Positions 17,372 through 47,757 of a stretch of DNA of 64,000 nucleotides are shown piece by piece. The notes under the pieces were generated by a model, which ran no database searches, was not told the origin of the DNA, and saw only the letters and a program-made list of their open reading frames with translations. This DNA is from a virus, in IMG/VR virus record IMGVR_UViG_3300028423_000861, positions 64,001 through 128,000 of that record. One strand, 5' to 3'. Within the stretch, counting starts at the first letter, position 1. Each line of letters begins with the position of its first letter. Both the position numbers and the translations under genes were made by a program.

Positions 17372-18115
17372 TTATTTTCTTCCCCGAACCCAACCATTCG
17401 GTATATCACTATCTTTCTGTATTCGTTTATTTTTAACACCATCTGTTATCCAAACAGAGCCATACGAATAATTATTTGCACCAGTCATTGCGTTCGAAAT
17501 TTTTTGCTTTGTTTCAGTAGACAATTTATTGCCTTTTCTTGATTCACTCATCTTTTGTCGGGTTGCAGTCGATTTCTTTTTACCTACCAACGCTTCTGAC
17601 AATTTCTTACGATGCTCTTGAGTAATAACCCTTGGCTTTGGCTTCACTGATTTGTTATAGTATGGAATTCCTTGGCATCTTTTTGACATATAATGTTGCT
17701 CAAATGCCGAAACACTTATCTCATTCTGACATTTTAAGCAACATATTCTGTTATGCTTTTTTCCTTTAAATCCTGATGGTCGTTGTTTAGCTTTTTTACT
17801 TATTTTATCTCGAACTTCTGTAGTAAACAAGATTCCTGTATTAATTGAATTATTGTAAAAGGTATTTCCTTCAAATATTTCTTTTTTGTGTTCAGTTAAT
17901 AACTGTCTTTCTAAATTTATTGCTTCATAAGCATTGTCAAAGACTTGAATGATCTCACGTTTCCATTTAATATCAGGATCTTTCCAGTCTTTCCAAAATT
18001 CCTCTGAGCTACTTGATGAAATATATCCATCGTCAGTAGTTCCTTTGTGATACCCTATATATCGTTTGCCTAGTGTATTAGACCATTCATACACAAAATA
18101 TTCAACACGTTTCAT
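17372..18115 (-). CDS. GIY-YIG homing endonuclease with NUMOD3-like repeats
   Basis: FVYEW..YIGYH..DDGYISSS, E..LL, FYN; ETKQKIS-type repeats. Confidence 0.85.
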   Translation of the reverse strand: MKRVEYFVYEWSNTLGKRYIGYHKGTTDDGYISSSSSEEFWKDWKDPDIKWKREIIQVFDNAYEAINLERQLLTEHKKEIFEGNTFYNNSINTGILFTTEVRDKISKKAKQRPSGFKGKKHNRICCLKCQNEISVSAFEQHYMSKRCQGIPYYNKSVKPKPRVITQEHRKKLSEALVGKKKSTATRQKMSESRKGNKLSTETKQKISNAMTGANNYSYGSVWITDGVKNKRIQKDSDIPNGWVRGRK

Positions 18116-18162: not shown

Positions 18163-19040
18163 TAGTGAGATTACCTAAATTTCCGCGGTTGCCTTTGGAC
18201 CGTACCGTAAACCTTGCGAGTCTACGTTAATCCGTTATCCACTAAGCGCCTTTCAGCTGACTTAGTATCAACCAGTGCTGCCTAGTTTAAAGTGGTGGCA
18301 TTTCCACTATCGTTACACGCTACTCGTCCTTTGATCTTCCGCCTGCCTTGCGAGCAGTTCAGAGTCGCTAAACCCTTACGTCTTCTCTCCGAACAAACAC
18401 TTCCGCCTTGCGAGCTTCCATGCACGACATTCACCGTAGTGTGTCGTATTAAGCACCTTTAACGTGCAACTGAGGCAGTCTTTGCGTTTTTGCTATAATG
18501 CATCTGCAGGATTTGAACCCACACATTCAGTTCCTAAAGACTGACGCTCTACCATTGAGCTAAGTTGCTAACCTACCAAGACGTGCTGCCTCTTGTTGCT
18601 TCGCATCCTTTTGGGAAACGAAATACAACACGCCTAAATGCCTTTCTCCTTGCGGGATACTAAACGTCTTTTCAAGTATCCAGCTACCTCACTAGTCGGT
18701 AACTCTCAACTTTAAAGATAACAAGTTGCCCTCCTGCGCGAACAGTCGGACTATTTGTTTACCCGTTAACATTCTGTCTTCGCTAGATTGGAGTGCATAG
18801 CTTTGGCTCCCACCAAATTGTAACCTCGCCGGTTGGCCCTGGTTACTATCCTTTCGGGCATTTGCTCTAGCTTAGGACTTACCTCGCTCTTCACAAGGGG
18901 TGCGCTACGGCTTATAGGAATACATCCGTCTGCCACCTAGTCCGGGCTTGCGTAAATGGACCATTGCTGGCGCAAGTGCGTAGGCTTCCTTGCTTTGGCA
19001 GTGTTACCACTGTTATCCTCCTGGACGTCACGCCGCCCAT
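18163..19040 (-). ncRNA. GOLLD-like giant structured RNA
   Basis: ~880 nt without a long ORF; repeated CTCGCAAGG loops; GTGTTGTATTTCG..CCAAAAGG..GAAGCAAC, AAAGGTGCTTAA and 3' GTAATCTCA, recognised from memory of GOLLD; 5' end uncertain. Confidence 0.75.
18500..18568 (-). ncRNA. degenerate tRNA-like domain embedded in the giant RNA
   Basis: TAGCTCAATGGTAGAGC D-arm, TCAGT/ACTGA stem with 8-nt loop, GGTTCAAATCC, no CCA. Confidence 0.7.
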
Positions 19041-35678: not shown

Positions 35679-36196
35679 GGGTGTGGATTCCTGGTTTTCT
35701 TTAACCTCGTTTTTTGTATCTCACTGCTATAAAACAGGCTCTTCGTTTTCCACAGCCATTCCCCATGGCATTTGTGATACACATATGCGTAACTTTCAGT
35801 TACAATTAAATCTGGACTTAACCTTACTCTTAAGTAACTAGATTTTTGGTGGCCTGGTTCACGTACAATTGGCATTTTTTCTTTTAAAGATGGATCTGGA
35901 CCAAGTAAAACCGGAACATTTACTGAATCAAGTTTTGAAAAAGATCTGCGCGTTCCATAATACCATCTTATTTCTTCTAATGAACAATTCCTGAGCTTAT
36001 CAAACTCACCTACAACTCTTGTCCAATCGTCAGTTCGATCTAGTCGCATCGACGTTATTTCTGGAGGTGTGACTACAGGATTTAATCTACCATCAAGCAA
36101 TGCATATAGCATGGTTCCGATAGTTAATGACCAGACCAAAATGCCAAGATAGATAGCATTTTTGAATCTGTTCAATTTTTTTTCATTCCATGCCAT
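35675..36196 (-). CDS. membrane-anchored hypothetical, paralog of 34646-35086
   Basis: motifs shared with 34646-35086. Confidence 0.65.
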   Translation of the reverse strand: MAWNEKKLNRFKNAIYLGILVWSLTIGTMLYALLDGRLNPVVTPPEITSMRLDRTDDWTRVVGEFDKLRNCSLEEIRWYYGTRRSFSKLDSVNVPVLLGPDPSLKEKMPIVREPGHQKSSYLRVRLSPDLIVTESYAYVYHKCHGEWLWKTKSLFYSSEIQKTRLKKTRNPHP

Positions 36197-36304
36197 GACA
36201 ATCTCCTTAATGAATATTTATTCATACTGGAGATTTTTTTATGTAGCATGTTAATAAAATTGTTACCCCTGATCGTATTCAAACCGACACTGGAAAAGTA
36301 ACTT

Positions 36305-36387
36305 TGGTGGGCACGGCGGGACTCGAACCCGCAAGCCGAAGCAGAAGATTTTAAGTCTCCCGTGTATACCAATTCCACCACGTGCCC
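36305..36387 (-). tRNA. tRNA-Leu(UAA)
   Basis: loop CTTAAAA. Confidence 0.92.
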
Positions 36388-36835
36388 AAATTTCTAAATT
36401 ATGTTATTTCGTCAAAGTCTACGCTTCATAAAATATCCCATACTGGTTATGCCAGCAAGATATGCCCTAAACAGTGCTTCTTCGGCATCGGTTTTTAATA
36501 GTTCAGCAAGTTCGTCTTGATTCTCGCGGAACCAGGCCTTCCAAGTTGTGTCGTCGTCAGTCATGTGTCGGATATACCCTTGTTATTTTCCAGTCACTGA
36601 ATTCGTGATATAAGTTGTGCTTAGATTTACACTGCTTCAATACTACTAGTATAGACTCAAAATCTTCTCCGGACAATATTGCCGGCACTTCGCGGCAATC
36701 CTGATAATGCAACATTTGAAAATGTCTTCCATCATCAGTATGAAAATTGATCACTGTTCGATCAATATTAAAATTAACATCTTCCAATGTCATGCCAATT
36801 AAATCAGAAACATGTGTCATTTTTTCACTTTAATT

Positions 36836-36922
36836 TGGTGCTAGCTGAAGGATTCGAACCTTCGACGGGCAATCGCCAACGGCTTACAAGACCGTTCCCT
36901 TCGTCCACTCGGGCAAGCTAGC
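36836..36922 (-). tRNA. tRNA-Thr(UGU), long V-arm
   Basis: ACGGT-CTTGTAA-GCCGT. Confidence 0.85.
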
Positions 36923-36939
36923 ATATATATTCAAACAGT

Positions 36940-37025
36940 ATTTACGACGGGACTCGAACCCGCACCTCCGGATTTCCAAAACGCTGCAATGCTGTTCCGG
37001 TGAACTACCACTTATTCTACGCGCC
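36940..37025 (-). pseudogene. tRNA relic with expanded anticodon loop
   Basis: D- and T-arms present, 3' acceptor strand lost. Confidence 0.55.
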
Positions 37026-37261
37026 TACTGCTCGGTCCGCTCCTACGTCAAGTTCTTATAGCATCGTCTCCCTGTAGTGTCAACACTTCTGATCAGTTTT
37101 CACTTCGCTTTCGCATTGTGCCTGTCTGGCCCTTCCCCAGCTCACGGTTTTTATAGCTTTGCAACGTGTTACACAATGTTTCCGCTCCGTTTCCACATCA
37201 CCTCCGTGATGTCTTACAGTTTGGCTCAACTATCGCCCCGTGACGCGGTGGCTTGCGATTC

Positions 37262-37348
37262 TGGTGCTAACTGAAGGATTTGAACCTTCGATGGGCTTGT
37301 GCCAACGGCTTACGAAACCGTTCCCTTCGTCCGCTCGGGCAAGCTAGC
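37262..37348 (-). tRNA. tRNA-Thr(CGU), long V-arm, duplicate of 36836-36922
   Basis: near-identical body, loop TTCGTAA. Confidence 0.85.
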
Positions 37349-37354
37349 AATTTT

Positions 37355-37430
37355 TGGTGGAACCCCGCGGAATCGAACCGCAGTCTCCTGGGCTTCAACC
37401 AGGCGTGAGCACCAGCCTCACCAGAGTTCC
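37355..37430 (-). tRNA. tRNA-Phe(GAA)
   Basis: CCTGG-TTGAAGC-CCAGG. Confidence 0.88.
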
Positions 37431-37801
37431 AATTGTTCAAAATCTAGGTTCTCAACTATCAAGAACCTTTTATCTGTATGTTGATTGATAACAGCATTCA
37501 TTTTCTGTCTGTCATTACCCCCTGTCGCTCTACCAGTGATCTACAGAAGCGTTATTCTTACTCGCCTGGATCCTGGTCTCCTGGAAAATCCCAAGAAGGC
37601 AAATCTCCGATTTCTTTTAGTGTAACCGTTGCTTCATGAAGATCAATTACTTCAATTCCTGACTCATTATCAAAAATATCCGGACGATCTCGTCTTGCTG
37701 AACGTTCTGCATGTGCAGGATTTTCTGCAACAATTACAAACTGTTGATCATAATAATTTTCGGTTTGAACTAAAAATATTTTCATCTTACACCTAAAATC
37801 T

Positions 37802-37877
37802 TGGTGGCCTATCATGGACTCGAACCATGTAACCCTTCCTTATGAGAGAAGTGCGTGAACCCTTTCGCCTATAGGCC
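37802..37877 (-). tRNA. tRNA-CAU (Met or Ile2)
   Basis: loop CTCATAA. Confidence 0.85.
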
Positions 37878-38053
37878 GTAAATCTTTACTATCAAAAATA
37901 CCTTTTCGTATCTTGTTTATTTCTTCTTCAGTAATAATGCAGATATTGTCCTTTACAGTAATCCATTTAGCAATATCTCGTTCTTGTATATAACCTTTTA
38001 CTTCAACATACATTCCATTTGTTATAGAATGACATATTTTGTCATAATGTCAA

Positions 38054-38127
38054 TGGTGGAGCACCGGGGAATCGAACCCCGTGACGCCGATCTTGCAAGG
38101 ATCAGCCGTGACCCATCAACGTGCCCC
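38054..38127 (-). tRNA. tRNA-Ala(UGC)
   Basis: G3:U70, loop CTTGCAA. Confidence 0.88.
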
Positions 38128-38342
38128 AAAAATCTTGTTAGGCAGTTTAACAACAACAATTCTGAATGCCTAGGTTGGGCGTGTTAAGAGCTCGTCCCCT
38201 TCTCACATACAGTATTTAACGTTTCGCTTTCAACGTTTGGGGATGCATGTTCACCCGCTGCCTATTTCTGCCCGCCTGGGATTCGAACCCATATTCATTT
38301 TTTCTAAGGCGCAGACCACGCTACCGGCCAGCAGATTAACTT

Positions 38343-38462
38343 TGGTGGGCTGTCCAGGATTCGAACCCGTTTTCTAAAGACTCACGCTATTCCACTCATT
38401 GACTACGGGGTGTGTAGTATGTTGGACGTGTAGCAGCATAACCAATACCACAAAAACAGCCC
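38343..38462 (-). ncRNA. 120-nt tRNA-like RNA (acceptor stem and T-arm, novel body)
   Basis: GGGCTGT/ACAGCCC-ACCA, GGTTCGAATCC. Confidence 0.6.
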
Positions 38463-39020
38463 GAAAAAATTTGATACTATCGCTTGCCTTACCGGTGTAT
38501 CAAACCGGCGCCAGTTTAAGGTACGGCGCTGCATACCACGTGCCTTTTCTCACGCTATCGTGGAGTTACCTATCAGTTAGTTGTATAGTTTATGAACCAT
38601 TTCTAACAATTCTTGGTTATCATCTATACATCCGGTATAAATTTCATCAACCTCACAGTCTGTGCAATCAAGACTGTCGATAATAAACTGTGCTGGAATT
38701 TTGCGATCATTACAAAACTCTTCGAATTCCGCAGTAGCAAGTTCGCCACCACTATCACTCACAACAACCAATTTTTTATTATCAACATCAAAAACGTTTG
38801 TTATGGTTCCTGATTCACAGTATTCATCTACATCTGGTTCCATGCAGATAGATTCAAATTGTTTGACCCATTCATTGAGTTGTTCATCATTCATGACAGC
38901 AACAACACTATCGCAACATTCAAGCAGCGATTCGGCTGTGCTATAATCATCAAAAACAAAATATTTAGAATAGCTTGGTTGGATTTTCATTCTATTACCA
39001 TGTTAAGTTAAAATTAATTT

Positions 39021-39088
39021 TGGCAGGGGGTAAAGGAGTCGAACCTTTTATGTTCTGATTTGGACCCAGCCCATTTGACAACCCCCCT
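39021..39088 (-). tRNA. tRNA-Trp(CCA), 68 nt, truncated D-arm
   Basis: AGGGGG/CCCCCT-GCCA, loop GTCCAAA. Confidence 0.65.
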
Positions 39089-39094
39089 ATATTC

Positions 39095-39168
39095 TGGCGA
39101 CCCATGGGAGAATCGAACTCCCGACCTCGGATAGACAATCCGGTATGATACCACTTCATCAATGGGCC
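39095..39168 (-). tRNA. tRNA-Asp(GUC)
   Basis: loop TTGTCTA, G73. Confidence 0.88.
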
Positions 39169-39174
39169 ATAATC

Positions 39175-39250
39175 TGGTCCTGCGCTGAGGAATCGAACCT
39201 CATCCTCCCGGGCCACAACCGAGCGTGACAACCTTTTTCACCTACGCAGG
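39175..39250 (-). tRNA. tRNA-His(GUG), A73, no G-1
   Basis: loop TTGTGGC. Confidence 0.88.
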
Positions 39251-39408
39251 ATATTCGTATAACCTGAAGACATCTGGATATTTTTTTATCCTCTCACTCG
39301 TCATTTAATAAAACATGCTTCTTTGAAAGGTGGACTCCATCATCAAGATAATTTACAATATCTTACCGCTACTGAAAACAGAGCCAAAGGTGATAAATTA
39401 ATTTAGCT

Positions 39409-39484
39409 TGGCGGTTTTATCTTGACTTGAACAAGAAACTCTGGTTTAGGAGACCAGTGTGATATCCAGTTTCACCATAAAACC
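39409..39484 (-). tRNA. tRNA-Arg(CCU)
   Basis: CTGGT-CTCCTAA-ACCAG. Confidence 0.85.
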
Positions 39485-39659
39485 AATCCAGTCGGACAGG
39501 ACATTTATTCTCGTGGTTCTTGTGGTGCTGTCCACTACCACCATCGGCTCCTGATACTTTTTACGGAGGTTGTGTCCCTCGGACAAATTTAACCACGGCG
39601 ATCTTTTAAAGTTGAGTATTTTATACTACAAATCTCTAAACGTAGATCGCACAACGTAT

Positions 39660-39734
39660 TGGCGCCCCTAGTAGGATTCGAACCCACAACACACGGTTTC
39701 GAAGACCGTTGCTCTTCCGTTGAGCTATAGAGGC
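39660..39734 (-). tRNA. tRNA-Arg(UCG)
   Basis: ACGGT-CTTCGAA-ACCGT. Confidence 0.9.
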
Positions 39735-39765
39735 ATATATGGACCTCCGGGTTGGGTTCGAACCT

Positions 39766-40476
39766 TTAAAAGTTGGATGCGCGACTAGGACTCGAACCTA
39801 GATTAGCTGGCTCAGAACCAGTTTTCCTACCATTAGAAGACCGCGCAGCATTTGTTTTGCAATTATCAAAATGCCATCTTTTCATGTTATTCGGAGACCC
39901 TTCTTTCTCGCAATGCGGACATGTTATCTTAGGTTTAGGCTTTCCTTTTGGCCAGCCACCTTCATTGGAATTAAGGGCATAATATTCTTTCATCACTTTA
40001 GAATGATTTTGTTTATATTTTTCGCTCTTCTCTCTTCCTTTAAGAGCTGCAGAACGCTTCTTTCTTTCTACATCAGGCATAGGGCCGATTAACTTACCTT
40101 TATTCCAAGGAGTGCGACTAGATGTCGCTATACCAATTTTTTCTTTTGCCTCTGGTGAATGTTGTCTTCCGAGAAACGCCGTTTTTGCTTTAACCGGATC
40201 CCAACCGCCATTGCCACCAACACAAAGGTTGTAATTGGTTTCTTGCAGCACAAATTCTTCAGTTACTAATTCAGCTTCTTTAGCATTCATGTCATCTTCA
40301 TTATCAAATATGTGTAGTATTTCCTTTTGAAAATTCTCTATACCATATTTGTTAATTGCGCGTTGAATCAATAATCCTGATCCTAAATATCCGTCATCTA
40401 AATTTGAAGTTTTATGCTTACCAATATAAATCATATTGGTAATTTGGTTAGTAATTTTATAAACAGTGTGAAACAT
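39766..40476 (-). CDS. GIY-YIG (Seg-like) homing endonuclease
   Basis: VYKITN...IYIGKH...DDGYLGSG, YNL..GG.GG, C-terminal CPHC...WHFDNCK. Confidence 0.9.
   Translation of the reverse strand: MFHTVYKITNQITNMIYIGKHKTSNLDDGYLGSGLLIQRAINKYGIENFQKEILHIFDNEDDMNAKEAELVTEEFVLQETNYNLCVGGNGGWDPVKAKTAFLGRQHSPEAKEKIGIATSSRTPWNKGKLIGPMPDVERKKRSAALKGREKSEKYKQNHSKVMKEYYALNSNEGGWPKGKPKPKITCPHCEKEGSPNNMKRWHFDNCKTNAARSSNGRKTGSEPANLGSSPSRASNF
39774..39847 (-). tRNA. tRNA-Gln(CUG), inside the 3' end of the endonuclease ORF
   Basis: loop TTCTGAG, TCCA. Confidence 0.88.
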
Positions 40477-40525
40477 ATTCTTATTTATCAGACGTCCAAC
40501 CAATTAGACCGCCGGAGGATTATTC

Positions 40526-40600
40526 TGGTGCTCCCAAGAGGAATCGAACCTCTAACTGATCCGTACCAAGGATCTGTGTTCCCGTTATCACCATAGGAGC
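40526..40600 (-). tRNA. tRNA-Thr(GGU)
   Basis: GATCC-TTGGTAC-GGATC. Confidence 0.9.
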
Positions 40601-40602
40601 AA

Positions 40603-40685
40603 TGGAGCGGATAGGCGGAATCGAACCGCTTGCTCACAGCTTGGAAGGCTGCTGATAACACCAGTTACCATGAAGCTCTACCCGC
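40603..40685 (-). tRNA. tRNA-Gly(UCC), altered D region
   Basis: loop CTTCCAA, U73. Confidence 0.8.
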
Positions 40686-41476
40686 TCAGTTATAAATGTA
40701 GACAATACGAGATGTATAACCAAACTCATTGTCTAGTATTCTTTGCATGAGTTCTGCTTTTTGTGTTGCAGCTTGCTCTGTTCTAGCATCAACATAATCT
40801 CGCCCTAGCGAGAAGCTCTTAAGCAGCCTCTGACGTAATTTAGTTAGTATTTGATCACTGTAACTACGACGGACTTCATATCTTATACGATACTTTTCGT
40901 TCTCGCCCTGTGCGTATATAATAAAATCTGTATCTGCTGTAACAACCATGATTATCTGCTTACATAAAAGCCCGCACCGCCCCAGGATGTGCCACTAACT
41001 TTACCGTAAAATACTCGAACACCATCGCTGGTCATGAAAGAATGACTGTCTGTGACGTCTATTTGTCCATCCGTATATACGCTTATTGTTTCTTCAAAAT
41101 CACTGATAATATCACGACGTGTGCTGAGATCAATATCTGATCCGATCTTGAGAAAAGCAATATAACGACGATCGAATTGTCCTTGAGGAATGTCGATATT
41201 GTATTCTGGTTCGATCATGCTATAGCTACGAGCGATGAATTTTCCAGTATCCGGGCCACTTGGACGTTCTTTATAGCCGGCTCCAGCTTCGCTTTCCCAA
41301 GTTCGAGCAACGTCCGCCGTTACTCTCATTAAACGACTTTCAAGACTGTCAAAGTTCATGTCGATTTCTTGTATATTATTCACAGCCTCAATCAATGACA
41401 TGATCTCTCTCATCTCTCGCCCATCTGACATTATCAATACTCCTACATTATCAGTATTTATATGTCAACATAATAA

Positions 41477-41551
41477 TGGAGGACCGTCTGGGGTTCGAAC
41501 CCAGGACACGAGGATTAAAAGTCCCCTGCTCTACCACTGAGCTAACGGTCC
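41477..41551 (-). tRNA. tRNA-Lys(UUU)
   Basis: loop CTTTTAA. Confidence 0.92.
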
Positions 41552-41569
41552 ACCGTTGTTTCATGATAT

Positions 41570-41647
41570 TGGTAGACCGGGTGGGGTTCGAACCCACGTT
41601 GACAGGGATTAAGAGTCCCTCGCTAAACCAAACTCAGCTACCGGTCC
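41570..41647 (-). tRNA. tRNA-Lys(CUU)
   Basis: loop CTCTTAA. Confidence 0.92.
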
Positions 41648-41667
41648 ACGAATATCACGAAAGTATA

Positions 41668-41755
41668 TGGAGGACCGGGTGGGATTCGAACCCACGATGG
41701 GCTTGCGCCACTGGATTAAAAGTCCAGTCTCTTCGACCGCTCGAGTCACCGGTCC
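41668..41755 (-). tRNA. tRNA-Lys(UUU), long V-arm
   Basis: CTGGA-CTTTTAA-TCCAG, V-arm TGGCGCAAGCCCAT. Confidence 0.87.
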
Positions 41756-41812
41756 AGGTGAAATGCAACTATATTGTCATCCCATCCTGGACCGCTGCGT
41801 TGTCCAGGACAG

Positions 41813-41839
41813 TTAGGTTTTCTTGGCCTTGCGTTTCAT
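41813..41839 (-). CDS. Lys-rich leader peptide MKRKAKKT upstream of three tRNA-Lys genes
   Basis: AAGGA RBS, ATG AAA CGC AAG GCC AAG AAA ACC TAA, hairpin 41782-41812 follows. Confidence 0.6.
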   Translation of the reverse strand: MKRKAKKT

Positions 41840-41861
41840 TGCTCTGTCCTTTCTGTTTCAA

Positions 41862-42578
41862 TTAGAGCTGAACCTTACTGGTTCGATTAATCATAAAAGC
41901 GGCTTCGCCGTTTTCTTCAAGTAGTTTGCCCATGTCTTCAAATGTGATATAGCAATCTCCATCTATACCCCATGTTCGACCCCATGAATTGCGCAATGTA
42001 AAGTATCCTTTCTTTACATTCACCGCGCGGGCCAGGAGTGCATGGCCTCCCATAATACTTCCAGATGGTTGGATAAATCCATTTTCATCTGGCTTATACA
42101 TTCCTTCATACCATCTAACACCCAACACTGCTGGACCGTTGTAACCTACACCCAAAACTAGATCTTCAAGTCCAAATGCCCAGCGATATGATTTAAAGAA
42201 CCCAATCTTTTTCATAACTTTGATCCCAGCCAGAACACTTGTTCCTTCATACTGTGGATCTCCGCCTGGATAAACGCCACCTGGCCACGGGTCTATTTTT
42301 TGAGCTTCATGGTATACATTTTCAACCAAATAGTCAAATGTTAAACCTTTAAATTCAGCTGGTCTTGACGCTGCCTCATGTCCAAGTGCAAATCCAACAC
42401 ATGCGCCCTCGCGGCCTTGGTCAAACCATTCATTGCAACGCCAGGTATATGATCTTGGAAACTTATCAGAAACAAGTTCACTAATTGGATATTCACGGCT
42501 TCTTTCATCGAAGTTTTCTAGTCTTGTCAGTCGTGAATCCTGTGTTACGGTGCCATTTTTTAATTTTACGGATGTCAT
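41862..42578 (-). CDS. papain-like (C1A) cysteine peptidase
   Basis: DQGREGACVGFA, GGHA, RNSWG..WG..G. Confidence 0.9.
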   Translation of the reverse strand: MTSVKLKNGTVTQDSRLTRLENFDERSREYPISELVSDKFPRSYTWRCNEWFDQGREGACVGFALGHEAASRPAEFKGLTFDYLVENVYHEAQKIDPWPGGVYPGGDPQYEGTSVLAGIKVMKKIGFFKSYRWAFGLEDLVLGVGYNGPAVLGVRWYEGMYKPDENGFIQPSGSIMGGHALLARAVNVKKGYFTLRNSWGRTWGIDGDCYITFEDMGKLLEENGEAAFMINRTSKVQL

Positions 42579-42606
42579 ATCAAATCTCCCTTTACGGAGA
42601 TATTTA

Positions 42607-42682
42607 TGGTCAGGGTGGAGGGTCTCGAACCCCCGTTCTCCTGGCTCCAAACCAGGCGACTTACCAACTAGCCCACACCCTG
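42607..42682 (-). tRNA. tRNA-Pro(UGG)
   Basis: loop TTTGGAG. Confidence 0.9.
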
Positions 42683-42688
42683 AAAAAC

Positions 42689-42743
42689 TGGAGCAAAGAT
42701 TCGGACTGTTTACCGCCAGACAATTCTGATTAATACTCTTTGC
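42689..42743 (-). ncRNA. 55-nt minihelix ending in UCCA
   Basis: GCAAAGA/TCTTTGC-TCCA. Confidence 0.45.
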
Positions 42744-42766
42744 CAATATTATCTGGATATTATATT

Positions 42767-42843
42767 TGGTAGGCGGTGGCGGAATTGAACCCCAAACCGA
42801 CGCGATCTTGTAAGGATCGCCGACTACACCATAGCTGCCGCCT
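42767..42843 (-). tRNA. tRNA-Val(UAC), atypical
   Basis: GCGATC-CTTACAA-GATCGC. Confidence 0.75.
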
Positions 42844-42852
42844 ATAAAAACT

Positions 42853-42928
42853 TGGTCTGGATGGCTGGATTCGAACCAGCGTTCAATCCTTCCGAGGGAT
42901 TGCGATGCGTCCACTCTCTTACACCCAG
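42853..42928 (-). tRNA. tRNA-Pro(CGG)
   Basis: AATCC-CTCGGAA-GGATT. Confidence 0.82.
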
Positions 42929-42933
42929 TAATA

Positions 42934-43010
42934 TGGTGGGCCTCCTTGGATTCGAACCAAGACTCTCAACCGTTATGAGCGGCGCGTGTTAACCGTTACA
43001 CCAGAAGCCC
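42934..43010 (-). tRNA. tRNA-CAU (probably Ile2)
   Basis: GGGCTT acceptor, loop CTCATAA. Confidence 0.85.
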
Positions 43011-43024
43011 GAAAACATTCATAT

Positions 43025-43099
43025 TGGATCTCCCTGCTGGATTCGAACCCGCAACTCCGGAACCAAACTCCGACGTCCTGCCAATTAGACCAAGGGAGA
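43025..43099 (-). tRNA. tRNA-Gln(UUG)
   Basis: loop GTTTGGT. Confidence 0.85.
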
Positions 43100-43193
43100 A
43101 CAAATTATTAACATAGCTAGCCCCTCCACTCCTTCCGGCACCCCGTGTGCGCTGCTATGTTGAACGACTTTCTCGTTCTTAACCACGGATCTT

Positions 43194-43281
43194 TGGTTGG
43201 GGAGGTGGGATTCGAACCCACTCACCGTTTCCGGAACGGGGTTACAGCCCGCCGCAGCTCTCCAAACTCTACCGCTCCCCA
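43194..43281 (-). tRNA. tRNA-Tyr(GUA)
   Basis: loop CTGTAAC, long V-arm. Confidence 0.88.
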
Positions 43282-43303
43282 ATGAAACTTTATATTTGAC
43301 TTT

Positions 43304-43383
43304 TGGTGGAGATAGGGAAGGCGTGTAGTCTCTCCTAGGCGGCCCCAACTGGCCCCGCAGTTATACACTCTGCGCATATCCCC
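43304..43383 (-). ncRNA. tRNA mimic with Ala-type acceptor stem
   Basis: GGGGATA/TATCTCC-ACCA with G3:U70, three non-canonical arms. Confidence 0.65.
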
Positions 43384-43393
43384 ATACTTGATT

Positions 43394-43470
43394 TGGTATC
43401 CGAGGTGAGATTCGAACTCACACTGTATAGGTTCTAAGCCTACTGCCTCTGCCAGTTGGGCTACTCGGAC
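43394..43470 (-). tRNA. tRNA-Leu(UAG), short V-arm
   Basis: GTAGG-CTTAGAA-CCTAT. Confidence 0.88.
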
Positions 43471-43476
43471 ACATAT

Positions 43477-43552
43477 TGGTAGCGGGTGCCGGATTCGAAC
43501 CGACGACCTAGTGGTTATGAGCCACTCGAGCTGCCCACTGCTCCAACCCGCA
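43477..43552 (-). tRNA. tRNA-Met(CAU), initiator-like
   Basis: 1:72 mismatch, GCGGG acceptor. Confidence 0.88.
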
Positions 43553-43639
43553 ACTGTTTGCTGGACTCTTTGTAAGGTTGCGAACCTTTTATTTGTTTAC
43601 GCATCTATCATAACAACCCAGATGCAACCAGCTAATTCA

Positions 43640-43724
43640 TGGTGGGAGAGTGTGGAATCGAACCACGCGCTTTTACACTCCAGTTTTACAGACCTTCTGT
43701 AGGGACCACCTACTGAACTCTCCC
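43640..43724 (-). tRNA. tRNA-Tyr(GUA), 8/4 fold, weak anticodon stem
   Basis: GGGAGAGT/ACTCTCCC, loop CTGTAAA. Confidence 0.7.
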
Positions 43725-43733
43725 ATGTATTTT

Positions 43734-43810
43734 TGGTAGTCGAGGAAGGAATCGAACCTTCATAAGACGGTTATCGGCCGCCCGCAATTGACCAACTCTG
43801 CCACACGACT
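43734..43810 (-). tRNA. tRNA-Ile(GAU)
   Basis: loop CCGATAA. Confidence 0.82.
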
Positions 43811-43816
43811 ATATTC

Positions 43817-43895
43817 TGGTGCCTCTGGGAAGAGTCGAACTTCCGACAGACAAGCCTTATCAGGACTCCGCTCTAACCAACTGAGCTACAGAGGC
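43817..43895 (-). tRNA. tRNA-Ile(GAU)
   Basis: loop CTGATAA. Confidence 0.9.
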
Positions 43896-43901
43896 AAATA
43901 T

Positions 43902-43979
43902 TGGTAGCGGGAGTGGGATTTGCACCCACGTCGATCGGCTTATGAGACCGATGCTGGCAACTACTCCAGTCCATCCCGA
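43902..43979 (-). tRNA. tRNA-Met(CAU), atypical
   Basis: loop CTCATAA, T-loop TGCAAAT. Confidence 0.75.
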
Positions 43980-44090
43980 CATGATTCTTTAAAACGGGCA
44001 GCGAGGGGATTTGCACCAGGTCCCTAAACCCTCTCCTCTTTTTCACTGACTAGGGAATCAGCTACTCTAGCGCCTTGCACTGCCACTAAC

Positions 44091-44166
44091 TGGCGGATGT
44101 GAAGGGATTCGAACCCTCGCATGGCGGATCGACAATCCGCTGTGTTAACCACTTCACCACACATCC
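44091..44166 (-). tRNA. tRNA-Asp(GUC)
   Basis: GCGGA-TTGTCGA-TCCGC. Confidence 0.92.
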
Positions 44167-44188
44167 AAATCTTCTTGCTCAACGACAA

Positions 44189-44259
44189 TTTACATACAGG
44201 AATCGAACCTGTGTCCCCCGGTTTTTGGCCGGGCGGCATATCCACTAGCCCAATGTAGC
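44189..44259 (-). pseudogene. tRNA relic (AAA at anticodon position, frayed acceptor, no CCA)
   Basis: intact D and T arms. Confidence 0.6.
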
Positions 44260-44438
44260 ACAAACATGTTCCGTGTTGCAGAACAGAACACATAAGGGTC
44301 TTTGAGCAAAGGTGCTGCAACACACCTATTCAAATTCAGCCGGAAGTTTCTTTTAACGTGCTGCCGGATCAGACACACAATTGCAATGGATGTGTAGTAT
44401 TCGTTGGCGCCCCACCCATCTTATTGCAAAATGGTATT

Positions 44439-44511
44439 TGGCACCCTCGAGAAGAATCGAACTTCTGTAAGCTGGCTTCGTAGACCTGCCACCGGATCCA
44501 CCGGCGAGGGT
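44439..44511 (-). tRNA. tRNA-Arg(ACG)
   Basis: loop CTACGAA. Confidence 0.8.
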
Positions 44512-44701
44512 GTTATAGTAATTCTTTACTCTGGAATATTTCGTAATTTACTTGTTCATCTAAACGATCACTCACTAAATTTTTAGGTTGGTTACGCTCG
44601 GCCTCTTCCCGCGTTTCGAACGGGCCATGAACTCGACTGTAATACCATCCGTTTTCTTTTACATACCACAACATCAAGCTCTCCTTTCTTTATAAAATTT
44701 T

Positions 44702-44778
44702 TGGCAAGGGTGGAGGGAATCGAACCCCCGTCGCAAGGTTTTGGAGACCCGCAGCTTATCCAATTAGAACACACCCCC
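44702..44778 (-). tRNA. tRNA-Trp(CCA)
   Basis: loop CTCCAAA, G73. Confidence 0.85.
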
Positions 44779-44785
44779 ATTATTT

Positions 44786-44863
44786 TGGCTGGCAGAGTGG
44801 GACTCGAACCCACCTTATTCTCGGTTAACAGCCGAGCGCGATCACCTGGATTGCTTTCTGCCA
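44786..44863 (-). tRNA. tRNA-Asn(GUU)
   Basis: CTCGG-CTGTTAA-CCGAG. Confidence 0.85.
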
Positions 44864-44977
44864 ATAATCTCTAGGTCCAGTATGGCCGTTACCACGTGGG
44901 TCTGCCGCCACTTGAATACTGGACTTCTGGCCCTTGCAGAACAAGCTATCCACTAGAGGGCATGTTGGTTTATAATT

Positions 44978-45074
44978 TGGCTGAGCCTAGCCCGGATTCG
45001 AACCGTGCTTCCTATGCTCGAGATACTGTGCACCTCTCTCAAGTTTGCTTTACCCTGTCTAAGCTATAAGCCCA
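44978..45074 (-). ncRNA. tRNA-like RNA with elongated anticodon arm
   Basis: acceptor stem, D-arm, T-loop and GCCA present; CTTGAGA/TCTCGAG extended arm. Confidence 0.65.
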
Positions 45075-45154
45075 TAATTATTATGTGATTGGCTCTTGAC
45101 CCTTCATCGGGCGACTTAGCCTTGCGGTGTCTTATAGACTACAAGGCACCATGT

Positions 45155-45229
45155 TGGCTGCGCAGGTAGGATTCGAACCTACGACCAAGTGATTAACAGT
45201 CACCTGCTCTGCCACTGAGCTACTGCGCA
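45155..45229 (-). tRNA. tRNA-Asn(GUU)
   Basis: canonical cloverleaf. Confidence 0.93.
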
Positions 45230-45269
45230 ATAATTTCTTGCGACTTACGGGTTCTTCACCCTGCGCTAG

Positions 45270-45765
45270 TATTCTGATCACAACTGCTATAAAGTGCTCT
45301 GCCTGGTTTCGAACCTTCGGCCAGCATCAGGCCTACAACCTACCGCACTGCTGTATGGGAAGCAGGAGATTTATAGCATGTGAAATCAGAATAGCTTTTT
45401 AGTTAATGTATAAGATATCATCGCCGTTTTGTCTCTGTACAGGCGTAATCCTGCACAGAGGAACTTAGATATCTTATACAATAACCAACTCTACTTTCAG
45501 CTGCACTATTTGTCAAAGGCGGTCTCGAACCGTCCCGACAACAGTGACAATCTGCCATCGGTGCTCCATATGCAATCCTATAGTGCATGTGAAAGTAAAC
45601 TCTACTTTCATCTGCTGATACATGATGGAGTCGAACCATCTCGGCGGGCCGTCGCCCTATTCGCTACACCGCGTATAAAGAAGGAATCGAACCTTCGCAC
45701 AGTCACCAAGACCCTAGTCCGGAATCGAACCGGATTACCTTACCACGTGCATCAGCATATGAAAA
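45270..45765 (-). ncRNA. three tandem long-stem RNAs with T-loop hairpins (45270-45393, 45493-45596, 45604-45765)
   Basis: each closed by a long stem with TTCAYATGC/GCAGNTG; 1, 1 and 3 GGTTCGA hairpins inside. Confidence 0.65.
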
Positions 45766-46013
45766 CAGAATCAGTCTTCACTACCATTCGGTCTTCTGCG
45801 GGCATTTCAGCCGACATTCTCTCGTGCTAGAAGGAAGTCCTGGGCAACTGGGCCCTCTAGCAGTTGAAAGGAGCACTCCCGGGGTGGTTAGTCCCATTAT
45901 GGCGAGCTGATATGTCGCTACTTGGCGACGCTCCTGTGTTTCGTAACAACCAACTGTGTCGCTTGCTACATGTTCTAAAGTAAGACATCTTGGTTTAAAT
46001 GTCAACTACTTTT

Positions 46014-46181
46014 TTAAAAAATTTCTTCTTTTTTTGAAACTTTATAAAACAGTAGTTTGGTATCCCCGACTGGATTCGAACCAGCACCCTCCAGAGTGAA
46101 AATCTGGCGTCCAAGACCATTTAGACCGCGGGGACATCTTTCTTCGTCTTCTTCGTCTTCTTCTTCGTGTTCGTCTTCCAT
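46014..46181 (-). CDS. Glu(GAA)-rich leader ORF reading through tRNA-Glu(UUC)
   Basis: AGGAG 7 nt before ATG; MEDEHEEEDEEDEER...; 55 codons. Confidence 0.6.
   Translation of the reverse strand: MEDEHEEEDEEDEERCPRGLNGLGRQIFTLEGAGSNPVGDTKLLFYKVSKKEEIF
46058..46135 (-). tRNA. tRNA-Glu(UUC)
   Basis: CCAGA-TTTTCAC-TCTGG. Confidence 0.92.
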
Positions 46182-46198
46182 TACATTGCTCCTAGACT

Positions 46199-46232
46199 AA
46201 AAAACCCTCCTAAGCTTTTTGCTTGGAGGGTT
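46199..46232 (-). terminator. intrinsic terminator of putative attenuator
   Basis: AACCCTCC-AAGC-AAAAA-GCTT-A-GGAGGG-TTTTTT. Confidence 0.85.
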
Positions 46233-46261
46233 GCTTGAGTATACTATCTGATCTAGTTCAG

Positions 46262-46411
46262 CTAGTCTCTTGCACCCTCCCCAATAGGCTCAAAGCGATC
46301 TCCATCGAGGCGTGACTGCATAATGCCATAATTCAACGCCCAGCTTTGTTCGCTGGTATTCAGACCTTTGACGGCCTTGTTGAATATGATATGTGACATT
46401 GTTGTTTGCAT
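46262..46411 (-). CDS. 49-aa attenuator leader peptide
   Basis: ATG..TAG between promoter (TTGACG-17-TATGTT, 46471-46499) and terminator; last codons GGAGGGTGC complementary to the terminator 5' arm. Confidence 0.7.
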   Translation of the reverse strand: MQTTMSHIIFNKAVKGLNTSEQSWALNYGIMQSRLDGDRFEPIGEGARD

Positions 46412-46605
46412 TACTATCTCTGTTTGATGTAGCAGCTTTTGCTGTTACGTTTATTTATCTCTTGTTAATCAACATACGCTAAAAAATCTAACTCGTCAAC
46501 AACTTTTTTTGTTTTTTTTGACGGCAACATGTCGTCGCCGCCATGTTCTTCAATATAGTGCTTGGTGACACAAAGGTCAAGAACTTTTTTAAAATAATTT
46601 TTGCT

Positions 46606-47757
46606 TCACATATAATTGCTGTTAATCATTTTACGAACACGCTCGGAATCAATGGGTTGTGTCTCGCACAGGCCATCAATGATCCGCACACACGATGTTT
46701 TCCACATAGTGTTGTAATCTACTCCCTGCCGCCGCCAGTCATGATAACCTTCTTTCCTAGCAGCTTCCATCGCTAGATCGTTTTGTTTGATAAATTCTTG
46801 GAGTGGGTACAGAACACCGTTTTGATCATAGTATCTTGCTGAGTCGGGACCCACAAGAAAATATTTGTCTTTGCCGATCTTGGGTAGTGATTCCCCCCTT
46901 GCAATGATTTTTTTCACTTGCATCTTGCTTTTACGGAAATCAATTTCATTATCAACATTAACATATTTTGCAAATCTCTCTTCAAGACTCACTTGTTTGT
47001 AGATATGCATTGGTCCTACGTTTCGGCCTTCGAGATGATCCGGAACAATCTTATAAAATTCACGTTCAACATGTTTCTCAAAATCTTCAGGATTATCCGA
47101 GAAAAAACTAAGGAAACCATTACGCGGAACGCTTATTGTGCCGCGTTCGGCCGTTAGTTTTTCGTCAATTACACGCTCACCAATTGGAATGATATATTCA
47201 ACATTATAATATCCAATATACAACCAATCTCCCCACGTATTGGAAACCACATCACCAGGTTGATGATCTAGTGTGGTTTTTTGCTTTTTCTTGTCATGTT
47301 TTTTGACTTCACTCTTGGCTTTTTCAAATGCTTTATCTGCTGAACGAATCAAACGGTTATTCGCACCATCTCGAATCCAGACCAATTCGTCTTTGATTTT
47401 TCCGTGATTGATTTCACAGTTAAGAATTAGATCAACAAGATTGGGAATATAAATTTCCAGTTCAAACCCACGAGGATCAACTACTCTTACAACTTTATTA
47501 TCAGTTACATAACGACCAGACCACCCAACAATTTCAAACCCGGTCATAGGCTTGTTATCATAAACCTTTCCTTCTCGTCCAGCCCAACGACGAGCCGTAG
47601 CTTTTCTTTTCTTAGCACCGCTATCGTCACCATCTGGGACAGCAAATGCTAGAGGTTTTCCACTACAGGTATCTGATTTACCGGTAGTGATATAATATTT
47701 GTCAAAATATTTAGGATTCGAGAGCTTCATCACCAGACTCCAGGTCTTTGTTGCCAT
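46606..47757 (-). CDS. hypothetical phage protein
   Basis: long ORF, DPRGFELEI motif. Confidence 0.7.
   Translation of the reverse strand: MATKTWSLVMKLSNPKYFDKYYITTGKSDTCSGKPLAFAVPDGDDSGAKKRKATARRWAGREGKVYDNKPMTGFEIVGWSGRYVTDNKVVRVVDPRGFELEIYIPNLVDLILNCEINHGKIKDELVWIRDGANNRLIRSADKAFEKAKSEVKKHDKKKQKTTLDHQPGDVVSNTWGDWLYIGYYNVEYIIPIGERVIDEKLTAERGTISVPRNGFLSFFSDNPEDFEKHVEREFYKIVPDHLEGRNVGPMHIYKQVSLEERFAKYVNVDNEIDFRKSKMQVKKIIARGESLPKIGKDKYFLVGPDSARYYDQNGVLYPLQEFIKQNDLAMEAARKEGYHDWRRQGVDYNTMWKTSCVRIIDGLCETQPIDSERVRKMINSNYM

Follow-up and report, generated by a model that had tools for sequence, protein, structure and literature searches.

Introduction

Homing endonucleases usually spare their host by residing in self-splicing introns or inteins, or by sitting between genes. 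The T4 nucleases SegF and SegG spread by intronless homing, in which a nuclease that adjoins a resistant target allele is inherited through co-conversion. Other homing endonucleases reside in group I introns that interrupt the anticodon loop of a tRNA, e.g., in the cyanobacterial tRNA-fMet intron with I-Ssp6803I. Paquin, Laforest and Lang reportedly described in 1994 a hybrid atp6 gene in Allomyces, in which a GIY-YIG ORF had been inserted together with a foreign 3′ end and the old end remained downstream. As for regulation, I-TevI represses itself at its own late promoter.

According to PMC2330249, the GIY-YIG nuclease SegB of the T4 tRNA cluster cuts inside tRNA genes and drives the inheritance of itself and the neighbouring tRNA genes. 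GGTTCRANTCC, a T-loop motif, is part of the 27-bp SegB site (PMC2330249; PMC13096335), and SegB homologs are widely associated with tRNAs (PMC13096335).

Here we describe a locus from the tRNA array of an uncultured giant phage, in which a nuclease gene and a complete tRNA-Gln(CUG) lie between two pieces of another tRNA-Gln. The window, i.e., the whole stretch of DNA analysed, is 64,000 nt long. The best reading of the locus appears to be a variant of the T4 SegB theme, namely Seg-type homing of a free-standing nuclease in which a resistant allele is co-converted. Like SegB, the nuclease is a GIY-YIG gene in a phage tRNA array, which is a likeness in the presumed mode of action and not membership in SegB. 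In contrast to SegB, which is located between tRNA genes, the cassette is inside a tRNA gene and has left both remnants of it. Further differences from SegB are the junction near nt 31, which recurs across the nuclease clade, and the isoacceptor replacement tRNA within the ORF.

With SegF/SegG, the locus shares a free-standing nuclease beside a diverged copy of its presumed target and a putative spread by double-strand-break repair that carries flanking DNA along. However, the presumed target encodes a tRNA and not a protein, and the old allele is left as two flanking fragments. As in the tRNA-intron systems, a mobile nuclease is found near the anticodon region and the element would neutralise its own damage; unlike them, the insert contains no ribozyme, and the rescue would come from a second complete tRNA gene instead of splicing. 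The resemblance to the reported Allomyces case is that the nuclease brings along a substitute for the displaced part and that the displaced piece is kept as a remnant, but there a mitochondrial protein gene is said to be partially replaced in frame, whereas here a whole tRNA gene is supplied. The likeness to I-TevI (a GIY-YIG nuclease with a T4-type late promoter, here a putative one, beside a target-like sequence) is one of juxtaposition alone. In the literature searched, no description was found of a nuclease and tRNA cassette nested in a tRNA gene.

Organization of the locus

The source record is an IMG/VR viral contig of 141,983 bp (142 kb) with an estimated completeness of about 60%, and the window corresponds to its bases 64001–128000. 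At the DNA level, megablast found no isolate phage that matches the region, and blastn against isolate phages returned matches limited to the N-terminal region of the nuclease gene and to individual tRNAs. Based on ARAGORN, the window contains 43 tRNA genes, every one of them on the minus strand and with an encoded CCA. The features of the locus, given in window coordinates, are as follows.

ends at 40526, minus strand: tRNA-Thr(GGU), followed by a 7-nt spacer and the 5′ remnant
40488–40518, minus strand: 5′ remnant, nt 1–31 of the resident tRNA-Gln, read from the sequence
40481–40489, minus strand: promoter-like motif GATAAATAA, 4–5 nt before the nuclease ATG
39766–40476, minus strand: ORF of a Seg-like GIY-YIG homing endonuclease, 236 codons plus TAA
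39774–39847, minus strand: intact cassette tRNA-Gln(CUG) with encoded CCA, found by ARAGORN and Rfam
39765–39773, minus strand: 9-nt spacer after the CCA of this tRNA, containing the ORF stop TAA (39768–39766), read from the sequence
39740–39764, minus strand: 3′ remnant, the last 25 nt of the resident tRNA-Gln, read from the sequence
begins 5 nt past the 3′ remnant, minus strand: tRNA-Arg(UCG)
43025–43099, minus strand: intact paralog tRNA-Gln(UUG), the closest relative of both remnants, with the same D-arm (GGTCTAATTGG..GGACG) and U73

The gaps flanking the remnants (7 nt on the Thr side and 5 nt on the Arg side) have the usual spacing of the array, and TAAATAAGAAT lies between the 5′ remnant and the ATG at 40476. 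The original prediction, made from the DNA letters, of split tRNA halves bracketing an insert with a promoter-like motif, a GIY-YIG ORF and an intact tRNA was thus confirmed to the base on the minus strand. It had also placed the intact tRNA-Gln(CUG) inside the ORF as the source of the C-terminal residues; indeed, 39847–39774 supplies the last 27 codons.

The tRNA-Gln remnants

The 5′ remnant (CCTCCGG CG GTCT AATTGGTT GGAC G TCTGA) comprises the acceptor strand, the D-arm and the 5′ strand of the anticodon stem, of which the last three nucleotides, TGA, may be part of the cassette. The 3′ remnant consists of GG, the T-loop TTCGAAC, the T-stem strand CCAAC, the acceptor strand CCGGAGG, U73 and CCA. 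Its first 13 nt (GGTTCGAACCCAA) are identical in a second copy of the cassette on contig L043 (see below), and judging from this identity they may travel with the cassette.

The two halves are partners from one gene. Their acceptor strands form 7/7 Watson–Crick pairs. As a control, the 5′ strand of each of 119 CCA-ending tRNAs from this phage and three relatives was combined with the 3′ strand of every other tRNA, and only 2 of the 14,012 mismatched combinations paired 7/7. Moreover, each remnant independently gave its best score with the tRNA-Gln(UUG) of its own genome (43099–43025) when 128 tRNAs were compared. The broken gene is therefore tRNA-Gln-like, as had been proposed from the D-arm and U73 that it shares with this paralog. 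A derivation of the halves from unrelated tRNAs, the outcome that was to speak against the original prediction, is ruled out by the pairing and the common best match, and a chance pair by the comparison with the control. The intact cassette tRNA-Gln(CUG) aligned with the remnants at a low score of 14, against 32 for tRNA-Gln(UUG).

Compared with the old tRNA, the two remnants are short of about 20 nt, which comprise the anticodon loop and the 3′ strand of its stem, the variable loop, and three nucleotides from the T stem. Splicing would therefore be unable to restore a tRNA, and the halves joined in silico gave no tRNA call. This bears on the reading in which the insert is excised, as an intron or otherwise, and the halves are rejoined, or assembled in trans, into a working tRNA. 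The perfect acceptor complementarity found in three independent split pairs would agree with it. However, the whole anticodon loop is among the missing nucleotides, and no group I/II intron or other ribozyme family was matched at E ≤ 1 in 36000–47000. In addition, one related locus (L049) retains only 17 nt of the 3′ end, and two others (L051 and L052) have decaying 5′ fragments without partners. We consider the probability of such an intron virtually negligible; excision by splicing, the other outcome named against the original prediction, thus finds no support in either the intron search or the anatomy.

It should be noted that TTCGAACCC forms the T-loop part of all 3′ remnants, in contrast to TTCGAATCC in intact Gln genes. 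Some of the 3′ half may therefore derive from the cassette and not from the resident gene. Alternatively, TTCGAACCC in the remnants may be the signature of a T-loop target variant that is immune.

No uninterrupted allele of the split gene of the window itself (CCTCCGG..CCGGAGG) was found, including by a gapped-pattern search with the same acceptor stem, and exact searches of IMG/VR with both halves and with the D-arm returned nothing. Searches of IMG/VR with the left-junction pattern also found nothing; the only metagenome match to that pattern, L055, proved to be a chance match in a bacterial gene without a tRNA and was discarded. Closer relatives were also sought through the neighbouring proteins. 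ORF161 gave none, ORF87 gave matches of merely 52–58% identity on contigs shorter than 700 bp, and ORF137 gave matches of at most 58% identity, of which one examined locus lay outside any tRNA array.

In G001 and L049, the two relatives that have this part of the array, tRNA-Thr(GGU) and tRNA-Arg(UCG) are directly adjacent. Hence, this location of a tRNA-Gln is lineage-specific and does not go back to the ancestor of the group. As a point against the homing reading proposed below, the whole unit, halves included, could have been acquired in one piece.

The nuclease gene

The ORF product matched the Pfam family SegE_GIY-YIG with 33.4 bits (cut-off 25) and phrog_314, annotated as "homing endonuclease", with an E-value of 5e-52 over residues 7–225 of the TTG-start frame. 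Of the C-terminal DNA-binding modules expected for this type, NUMOD3 scored 19.0 bits, slightly under its cut-off of 20.4. All 36 family-invariant residues (36/36) are present, including Y6, Y17, G19, E67/E69 and N83. The family profile aligned to the catalytic domain of I-TevI (1MK0) with an E-value of 0.002; phmmer of the nuclease against PDB sequences gave no match, so that I-TevI was reached by the family profile alone. The Cys/His element CPHC..RWHFDNC is invariant in the nuclease family, and its matches to PDB zinc fingers are weak (E > 0.3).

Based on the catalytic-domain residues and on the presence or absence of the gene at homologous sites, the nuclease is assigned to the GIY-YIG homing endonucleases of Seg type, in agreement with the predicted GIY-YIG ORF. 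The closest annotated DNA and protein matches are SegD/SegH-annotated or "Seg-like" genes, those from isolates having about 40% identity. The gene also follows a free-standing pattern: the nucleases in L043 and L049 are 89% and 75% identical to that of the window, respectively, while the proteins flanking them have no homolog or are 42% identical.

Codons 1–209 (40476–39850) correspond to the conserved protein, which ends in CPHC..RWHFDNCK, and codons 210–236 are a read-through across the tRNA. A protein search yielded 2044 homologs. Most of them cover only about 88% of the query, so the 27-residue tail is not part of the family, and it is missing in nearly all of the homologs. A start at TTG 40503 was also considered and rejected as an extension of the ORF caller into the 5′ remnant, since the relatives begin at ATG.

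The promoter-like motif

A T4-type late promoter would be expected to have TATAAATA roughly 6 nt ahead of the point where transcription begins, preceding genes on their coding strand. Across the 142-kb record, the coding strand has 13 copies of TATAAATA and the opposite strand a single one; for ATAAATA, the counts are 47 and 4, respectively. Such sites are found 5 nt before the ATG of three other ORFs and directly before several tRNAs. The site of the nuclease, GATAAATA, matches TATAAATA at 7/8 positions and has the same spacing to the ATG, and the nuclease start has no Shine–Dalgarno sequence. Taken together, the spacing and the missing Shine–Dalgarno sequence make a leaderless or near-leaderless late transcript plausible.

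The motif is kept before the nuclease in L043, L056, L057, L052, L051 and L058. The TAAATA motif of the original prediction is thus present, strand-biased and conserved in relatives, and its proposed role as a promoter, here as a putative T4-type late promoter, is plausible from the sequence context.

The cassette tRNA-Gln(CUG)

The intact tRNA scored 48.5 bits with the Rfam tRNA model RF00005 (gathering score 29), was called Gln(ctg) by ARAGORN, and is the sole Gln tRNA with a CUG anticodon found in the 142-kb record. Its copies in the window and in L043 are identical at 74/74 positions, whereas the nucleases of these two copies differ with a dS of about 0.59 and a dN/dS of 0.095. The low dN/dS means that the nuclease protein has been kept. 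Because the tRNA has 0/74 changes and the protein tail that it encodes is not conserved, it is the function of the tRNA and not the tail that explains the conservation. Thus, both the nuclease and the cassette tRNA are under purifying selection. In comparison with L049, the tRNA has three compensated stem changes (4:69, 29:41 and 30:40) and zero pair-breaking ones, and a 27:43 mismatch is common to both copies.

A search for the cassette tRNA in IMG/VR did not find it, nor did a search of JGI metagenome contigs in which degenerate positions were allowed.

The same cassette in an unrelated backbone

A nuclease 89% identical to that of the window and of the same length of 236 aa (P0001) was found on seven short assemblies (L042–L048). 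The gene order in L043 is tRNA-Lys(CUU), a 5′ half, TAAATAAGCGT-ATG, the nuclease, a tRNA-Gln(CUG) inside the ORF, TAA and a 3′ half; the spacer after the tRNA is equivalent to that of the window and also holds the TAA. The 5′ half is TCAGCCC TC GTCT ATCTGGTA GGAC G CTTGA, and the 3′ half is GGTTCGAACCCAAG GGGCTGA T CCA. These halves (TCAGCCC../..GGGCTGA) again pair 7/7, and their acceptor strands differ from those of the window at 6/7 positions.

The identity between the window and L043 spans from TGATAAATAAG to GGTTCGAACCCAA, which marks the extent of the shared unit. The ORFs flanking the cassette in L042 and L043 have no homolog in the 142-kb record. The cassette is therefore mobile between unrelated backbones.

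We also considered a local duplication, by which a SegB-type amplification or microhomology would have copied a tRNA-Gln of the phage beside the nuclease, with subsequent divergence. A tandem amplification of a tRNA and segB via microhomology is documented in T6 (PMC13096335). However, the cassette tRNA is unlike the remnants (score 14 versus 32 for the tRNA-Gln(UUG) of the same genome) and 100% identical to the copy in the unrelated backbone of L043, where the junctions are the same despite the different halves. Such a duplication is hardly credible here.

Filled and empty sites

The nuclease P0002 (209 aa) is 75% identical to that of the window and was found on contigs of up to 346 kb, the largest being L049. 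Here, an ORF of 184 aa (ORF184) is followed after 5 nt by the nuclease with its own TGA and, after another 5 nt, by a cassette-type tRNA-Gln(CUG) and AATAA. Then come a 17-nt 3′ remnant, CCCAAGGGGCTGATCCA, and conserved downstream DNA; a 5′ fragment is absent. In G001, the closest relative found for the window phage (ATPase 73% identical), an intact resident tRNA-Gln(CUG) with the acceptor strands TCAACCC/GGGTTGA lies between the counterparts of this 184-aa ORF and of the conserved downstream DNA. L049 and G001 are thus a filled and empty site pair. Compared with the window, a backbone protein of L049 is 42% identical and the nuclease 75%.

The original prediction had proposed to look for an uninterrupted allele in relatives; the syntenic empty site in G001 (against the filled one in L049) provides it for this pair, but none was obtained for the split gene of the window itself. 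Its central statement, that a homing endonuclease cassette split a tRNA-Gln and carries a replacement, is borne out by the different complementary halves in L043, by the L049/G001 pair and by a tRNA that is 74/74 identical against a dS of about 0.59 in the nuclease.

Proposed mechanism

Based on the above results, we suggest, with a probability of roughly 85%, an intronless homing of a nuclease and replacement-tRNA cassette (putative late-type promoter, GIY-YIG gene and tRNA-Gln(CUG)) into a resident tRNA-Gln. In a mixed infection, the nuclease would cut resident-type tRNA-Gln genes in phages without the cassette. The broken ends would be trimmed back to the flanks that match the donor remnants, and synthesis would copy the cassette. 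As a result, the break would be repaired from the cassette-bearing genome and the middle of the resident gene (from about nt 29/32 to 51) replaced, while the outer ends of the recipient would persist as dead remnants. The divergent cassette tRNA-Gln(CUG) would restore the lost decoding, and the insertion would therefore cost little. In the copies of the window and L043, a small deletion has removed the nuclease's own stop, so that the ORF reads through the tRNA to the TAA before the 3′ remnant.

In such a scheme, the recipient keeps its own distal ends, because of which the junctions would be constant and the acceptor stems different yet complementary. The cassette tRNA presumably contains no target, since nt 32–51 are absent from the split allele and the sequence of the cassette tRNA is very different. 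In addition to this immunity and to the cleavage specificity, we infer how the break is repaired and whether the overlap between the ORF and the tRNA has any influence on regulation. A difficulty for the homing reading is that the cassette copies are not recent (dS 0.59), and the perfect pairing of supposedly dead halves therefore needs either recent homing or some constraint. That no uninterrupted allele of the window's own split gene turned up, and that all 3′ remnants have one and the same T-loop part, also count against it.

The locus could be regarded as a natural cut-and-rescue drive. Together with its relatives, it would represent a third way of sparing the host, in this case for RNA genes, namely landing inside a tRNA gene with a complete spare tRNA. 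It also suggests one route by which the tRNA arrays of giant phages may be reshuffled and foreign isoacceptors gained.

More distant relatives and the 5′ fragments

Seven further relatives of the nuclease, 46–58% identical, were examined (L051, L052, L053, L056, L057, L058 and L059). In five of them (L051, L052, L056, L057 and L058; 53–58%), a 5′ tRNA-Gln-like fragment reaching to about nt 31 is followed by TATAAATA or a TAAATAA motif and the ATG. L056 has a split pair, TGCCCGT/ACGGGCA, with 7/7 pairing, but its replacement tRNA is absent. The recurring junction near nt 31 of tRNA-Gln points to target specificity and would give tRNA-gene-specific GIY-YIG nucleases. L051, L052 and L057 have related backbones with a near-identical upstream flank, while their fragments have diverged, with numerous substitutions, one indel and a disrupted pair in the D-stem. 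These differences fit decaying remnants or repeated replacement.

It could be supposed that the retained 5′ half-tRNA is a working part of the element, either as an operator at which the nuclease would bind half of its target and repress its own late promoter, by analogy with I-TevI, or as an RNA processing signal. Indeed, a Gln-like fragment to about nt 31 abuts a TATAAATA-type motif at seven loci with 53–89% nuclease identity, and five of these seven loci have no 3′ partner within the locus examined. However, the fragments of L051, L052 and L057 have diverged beside their near-identical upstream flank, and L049 has no fragment, although its nuclease is still conserved. In the window, L043 and L056, the fragments pair 7/7 with a downstream partner, and the 5′ fragment is therefore target-derived. 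A working role of the half-tRNA is very unlikely on this comparison, and the homing reading, with the fragment as a remnant of the target, is retained.

The end of the nuclease ORF

The position of the nuclease stop relative to the downstream tRNA varies among the relatives. It is found at +5 in L049, at +1 in L052 and L057, inside the next tRNA in L051 and L059, and past the whole tRNA in the window and L043. In L056, the last conserved codons are GAT AAC TG, and the ORF continues through the T-loop of the remnant into the next gene, reaching 321 aa. Judging from these sequences, the coding sequence of the nuclease typically reaches the edge of the element, and the stop often comes from the following sequence (L051, L059 and L056).

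The overlap of the ORF and the tRNA might instead be an evolved limiter of the nuclease, as the original prediction suggested for a nonstop mRNA left by tRNA processing. RNase P would excise the tRNA and thereby remove the stop and the 3′ end of the nuclease mRNA; ribosomes would stall, tmRNA would tag the product and the nuclease would stay low, while translation would delay the maturation of the tRNA. Consistent with this, the entire tRNA lies in frame within the ORF, the sole stop is located after it, and the stops of other family members are inside the downstream tRNA or 1–5 nt from it. Furthermore, the fused form is also found in L043 between different halves, which suggests that it spread after the fusion and is hence tolerated; the tailed or truncated nuclease accordingly seems to remain competent, as far as its distribution indicates. 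Against a limiter, the 27-codon tail is the exception among the 2044 homologs, and in L049, the most closely related form without the fusion, the nuclease ends at a TGA of its own, 5 nt short of the tRNA. The fusion is explained by the loss of about 6 nt that the window and L043 share relative to L049, and read-through also occurs without a tRNA, as in L056. We therefore regard an evolved limiter as unlikely; the pattern suggests that the stop is commonly lost as a side effect of the extreme compactness of the element.

Distinctly unlikely is an extended version in which the overlap acts as a switch, yielding either a mature tRNA-Gln and a tmRNA-tagged product of a stop-less nuclease mRNA or a full-length nuclease, with the half-tRNA operator as a second layer. 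If it were true, the selfish nuclease would be held in check by the maturation of the same tRNA that compensates for its insertion.

The association with tRNAs extends beyond Gln in this family. The nucleases of L059 and L053 (46–49% identity) follow 5′ fragments of other tRNAs, that of L059 being Gly(GCC)-like, and in both loci a whole Gly tRNA overlaps the end of the ORF.

Nuclease Relatives at Other tRNA Genes

The T-loop segment TTCGAACCC was present in every 3′ remnant of a split tRNA gene, despite the differing acceptor strands. Besides the window, these remnants were in two phage loci with a related nuclease and a cassette-type tRNA-Gln(CUG) (L043 and L049) and in the locus of a more distant nuclease relative (L056):

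Window 39756-39764, TTCGAACCC in the 3′ remnant
L043 1766-1778, the same
L056 786-794, the same
L049 about 4715, the same

At one position the segment carries C, whereas T is found there in the intact Gln genes used for comparison (Gln(CUG) of G001, the closest relative found, and Gln(UUG) of the window). TTCGAACCC may be flanking sequence that moves with the cassette, or else an immune version of a T-loop target.

Nucleases of the same family were located in a tRNA-Gln gene (L056) and with other tRNAs (L059, L053 and L057):

L056 102-810, nuclease-only insertion in a tRNA-Gln gene, halves TGCCCGT/ACGGGCA
L059 1423-2207, Gly(GCC)-like 5′ fragment, whole Gly tRNA at the ORF end
L053 319-1100, 5′ tRNA fragment, whole Gly tRNA at the ORF end
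L057 1071-1145, locus with a downstream Gly tRNA

The L056 insertion contains no replacement tRNA, and its nuclease ORF, having no stop of its own, runs via the remnant T-loop into the next gene to give a 321-aa fused product. In both L059 and L053, the whole Gly tRNA overlaps or abuts the ORF end. T4 SegB (PMC2330249) recognises the motif GGTTCRANTCC. The downstream Gly tRNAs of L057, L053 and L059 would lack this motif, because TTCGAAT is replaced in their T-loops by AGCGTTA (L057 and L053) or TTAGATT (L059).

The genome of G001 encodes a paralog of the window's nuclease:

L016 1135-1785 (−), paralogous nuclease, catalytic half 77% identical in DNA to the window's
L016 about 1835-1905, degenerate tRNA-Pro(UGG)-like sequence

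The latter lies, together with CATAAATAAG, 5′ of the paralog, and tRNA-Lys is 5 nt downstream. The C-terminal DNA-binding half, ending in ..WITNGFENRKI..GWYAGRKL, is unrelated to that of the window's nuclease, which looks like domain shuffling among tRNA-cluster nucleases.

tRNA Array and Putative Late Promoters

Two tRNA-like genes received no ARAGORN call:

Window 40607-40685 (−), anticodon loop CTTCCAA (Gly, UCC), enlarged D region
L021 1430-1500 (−), Arg(UCG)-like tRNA of G001 (CCCCCCTG..CAGGGGGTCCA), immediately after tRNA-Thr(GGU)

In Rfam, the former matched tRNA-Sec only, at 37.6 bits, which falls short of the gathering score (47). Its location suggests that it corresponds to the 85-nt tRNA-Gly(UCC) of G001 (L021 1668-1752).

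The motif TATAAATA showed a strand bias of 13 to 1:

Window 35099, 30840 and 15799 (−), each exactly 5 nt upstream of an ORF's ATG
Window 33829 and 28395 (−), immediately 5′ of tRNA genes

The spacing to ATG, the absence of a Shine-Dalgarno sequence in these three ORFs and the position directly 5′ of tRNAs suggest that the sites are T4-late-type promoters, which would yield leaderless mRNAs and tRNA transcripts.

Other genes of the record included:

Window 41862-42914 (−), 350-aa ORF
Window 17372-18115 (−), second nuclease-like ORF (NUMOD3, E 3e-12)
Window 18498-18569 (−), adjoining tRNA-like gene whose anticodon loop (ttag) has 8 nt

The first third of the 350-aa ORF overlaps three tRNA genes (42607-42928), and translation probably begins downstream of position 42607; a weak papain-like match (E 0.0055) lies close to the C-terminus. 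A CUA-anticodon suppressor tRNA is encoded in the same record, outside the window (44210-44285 of the whole record, G000).
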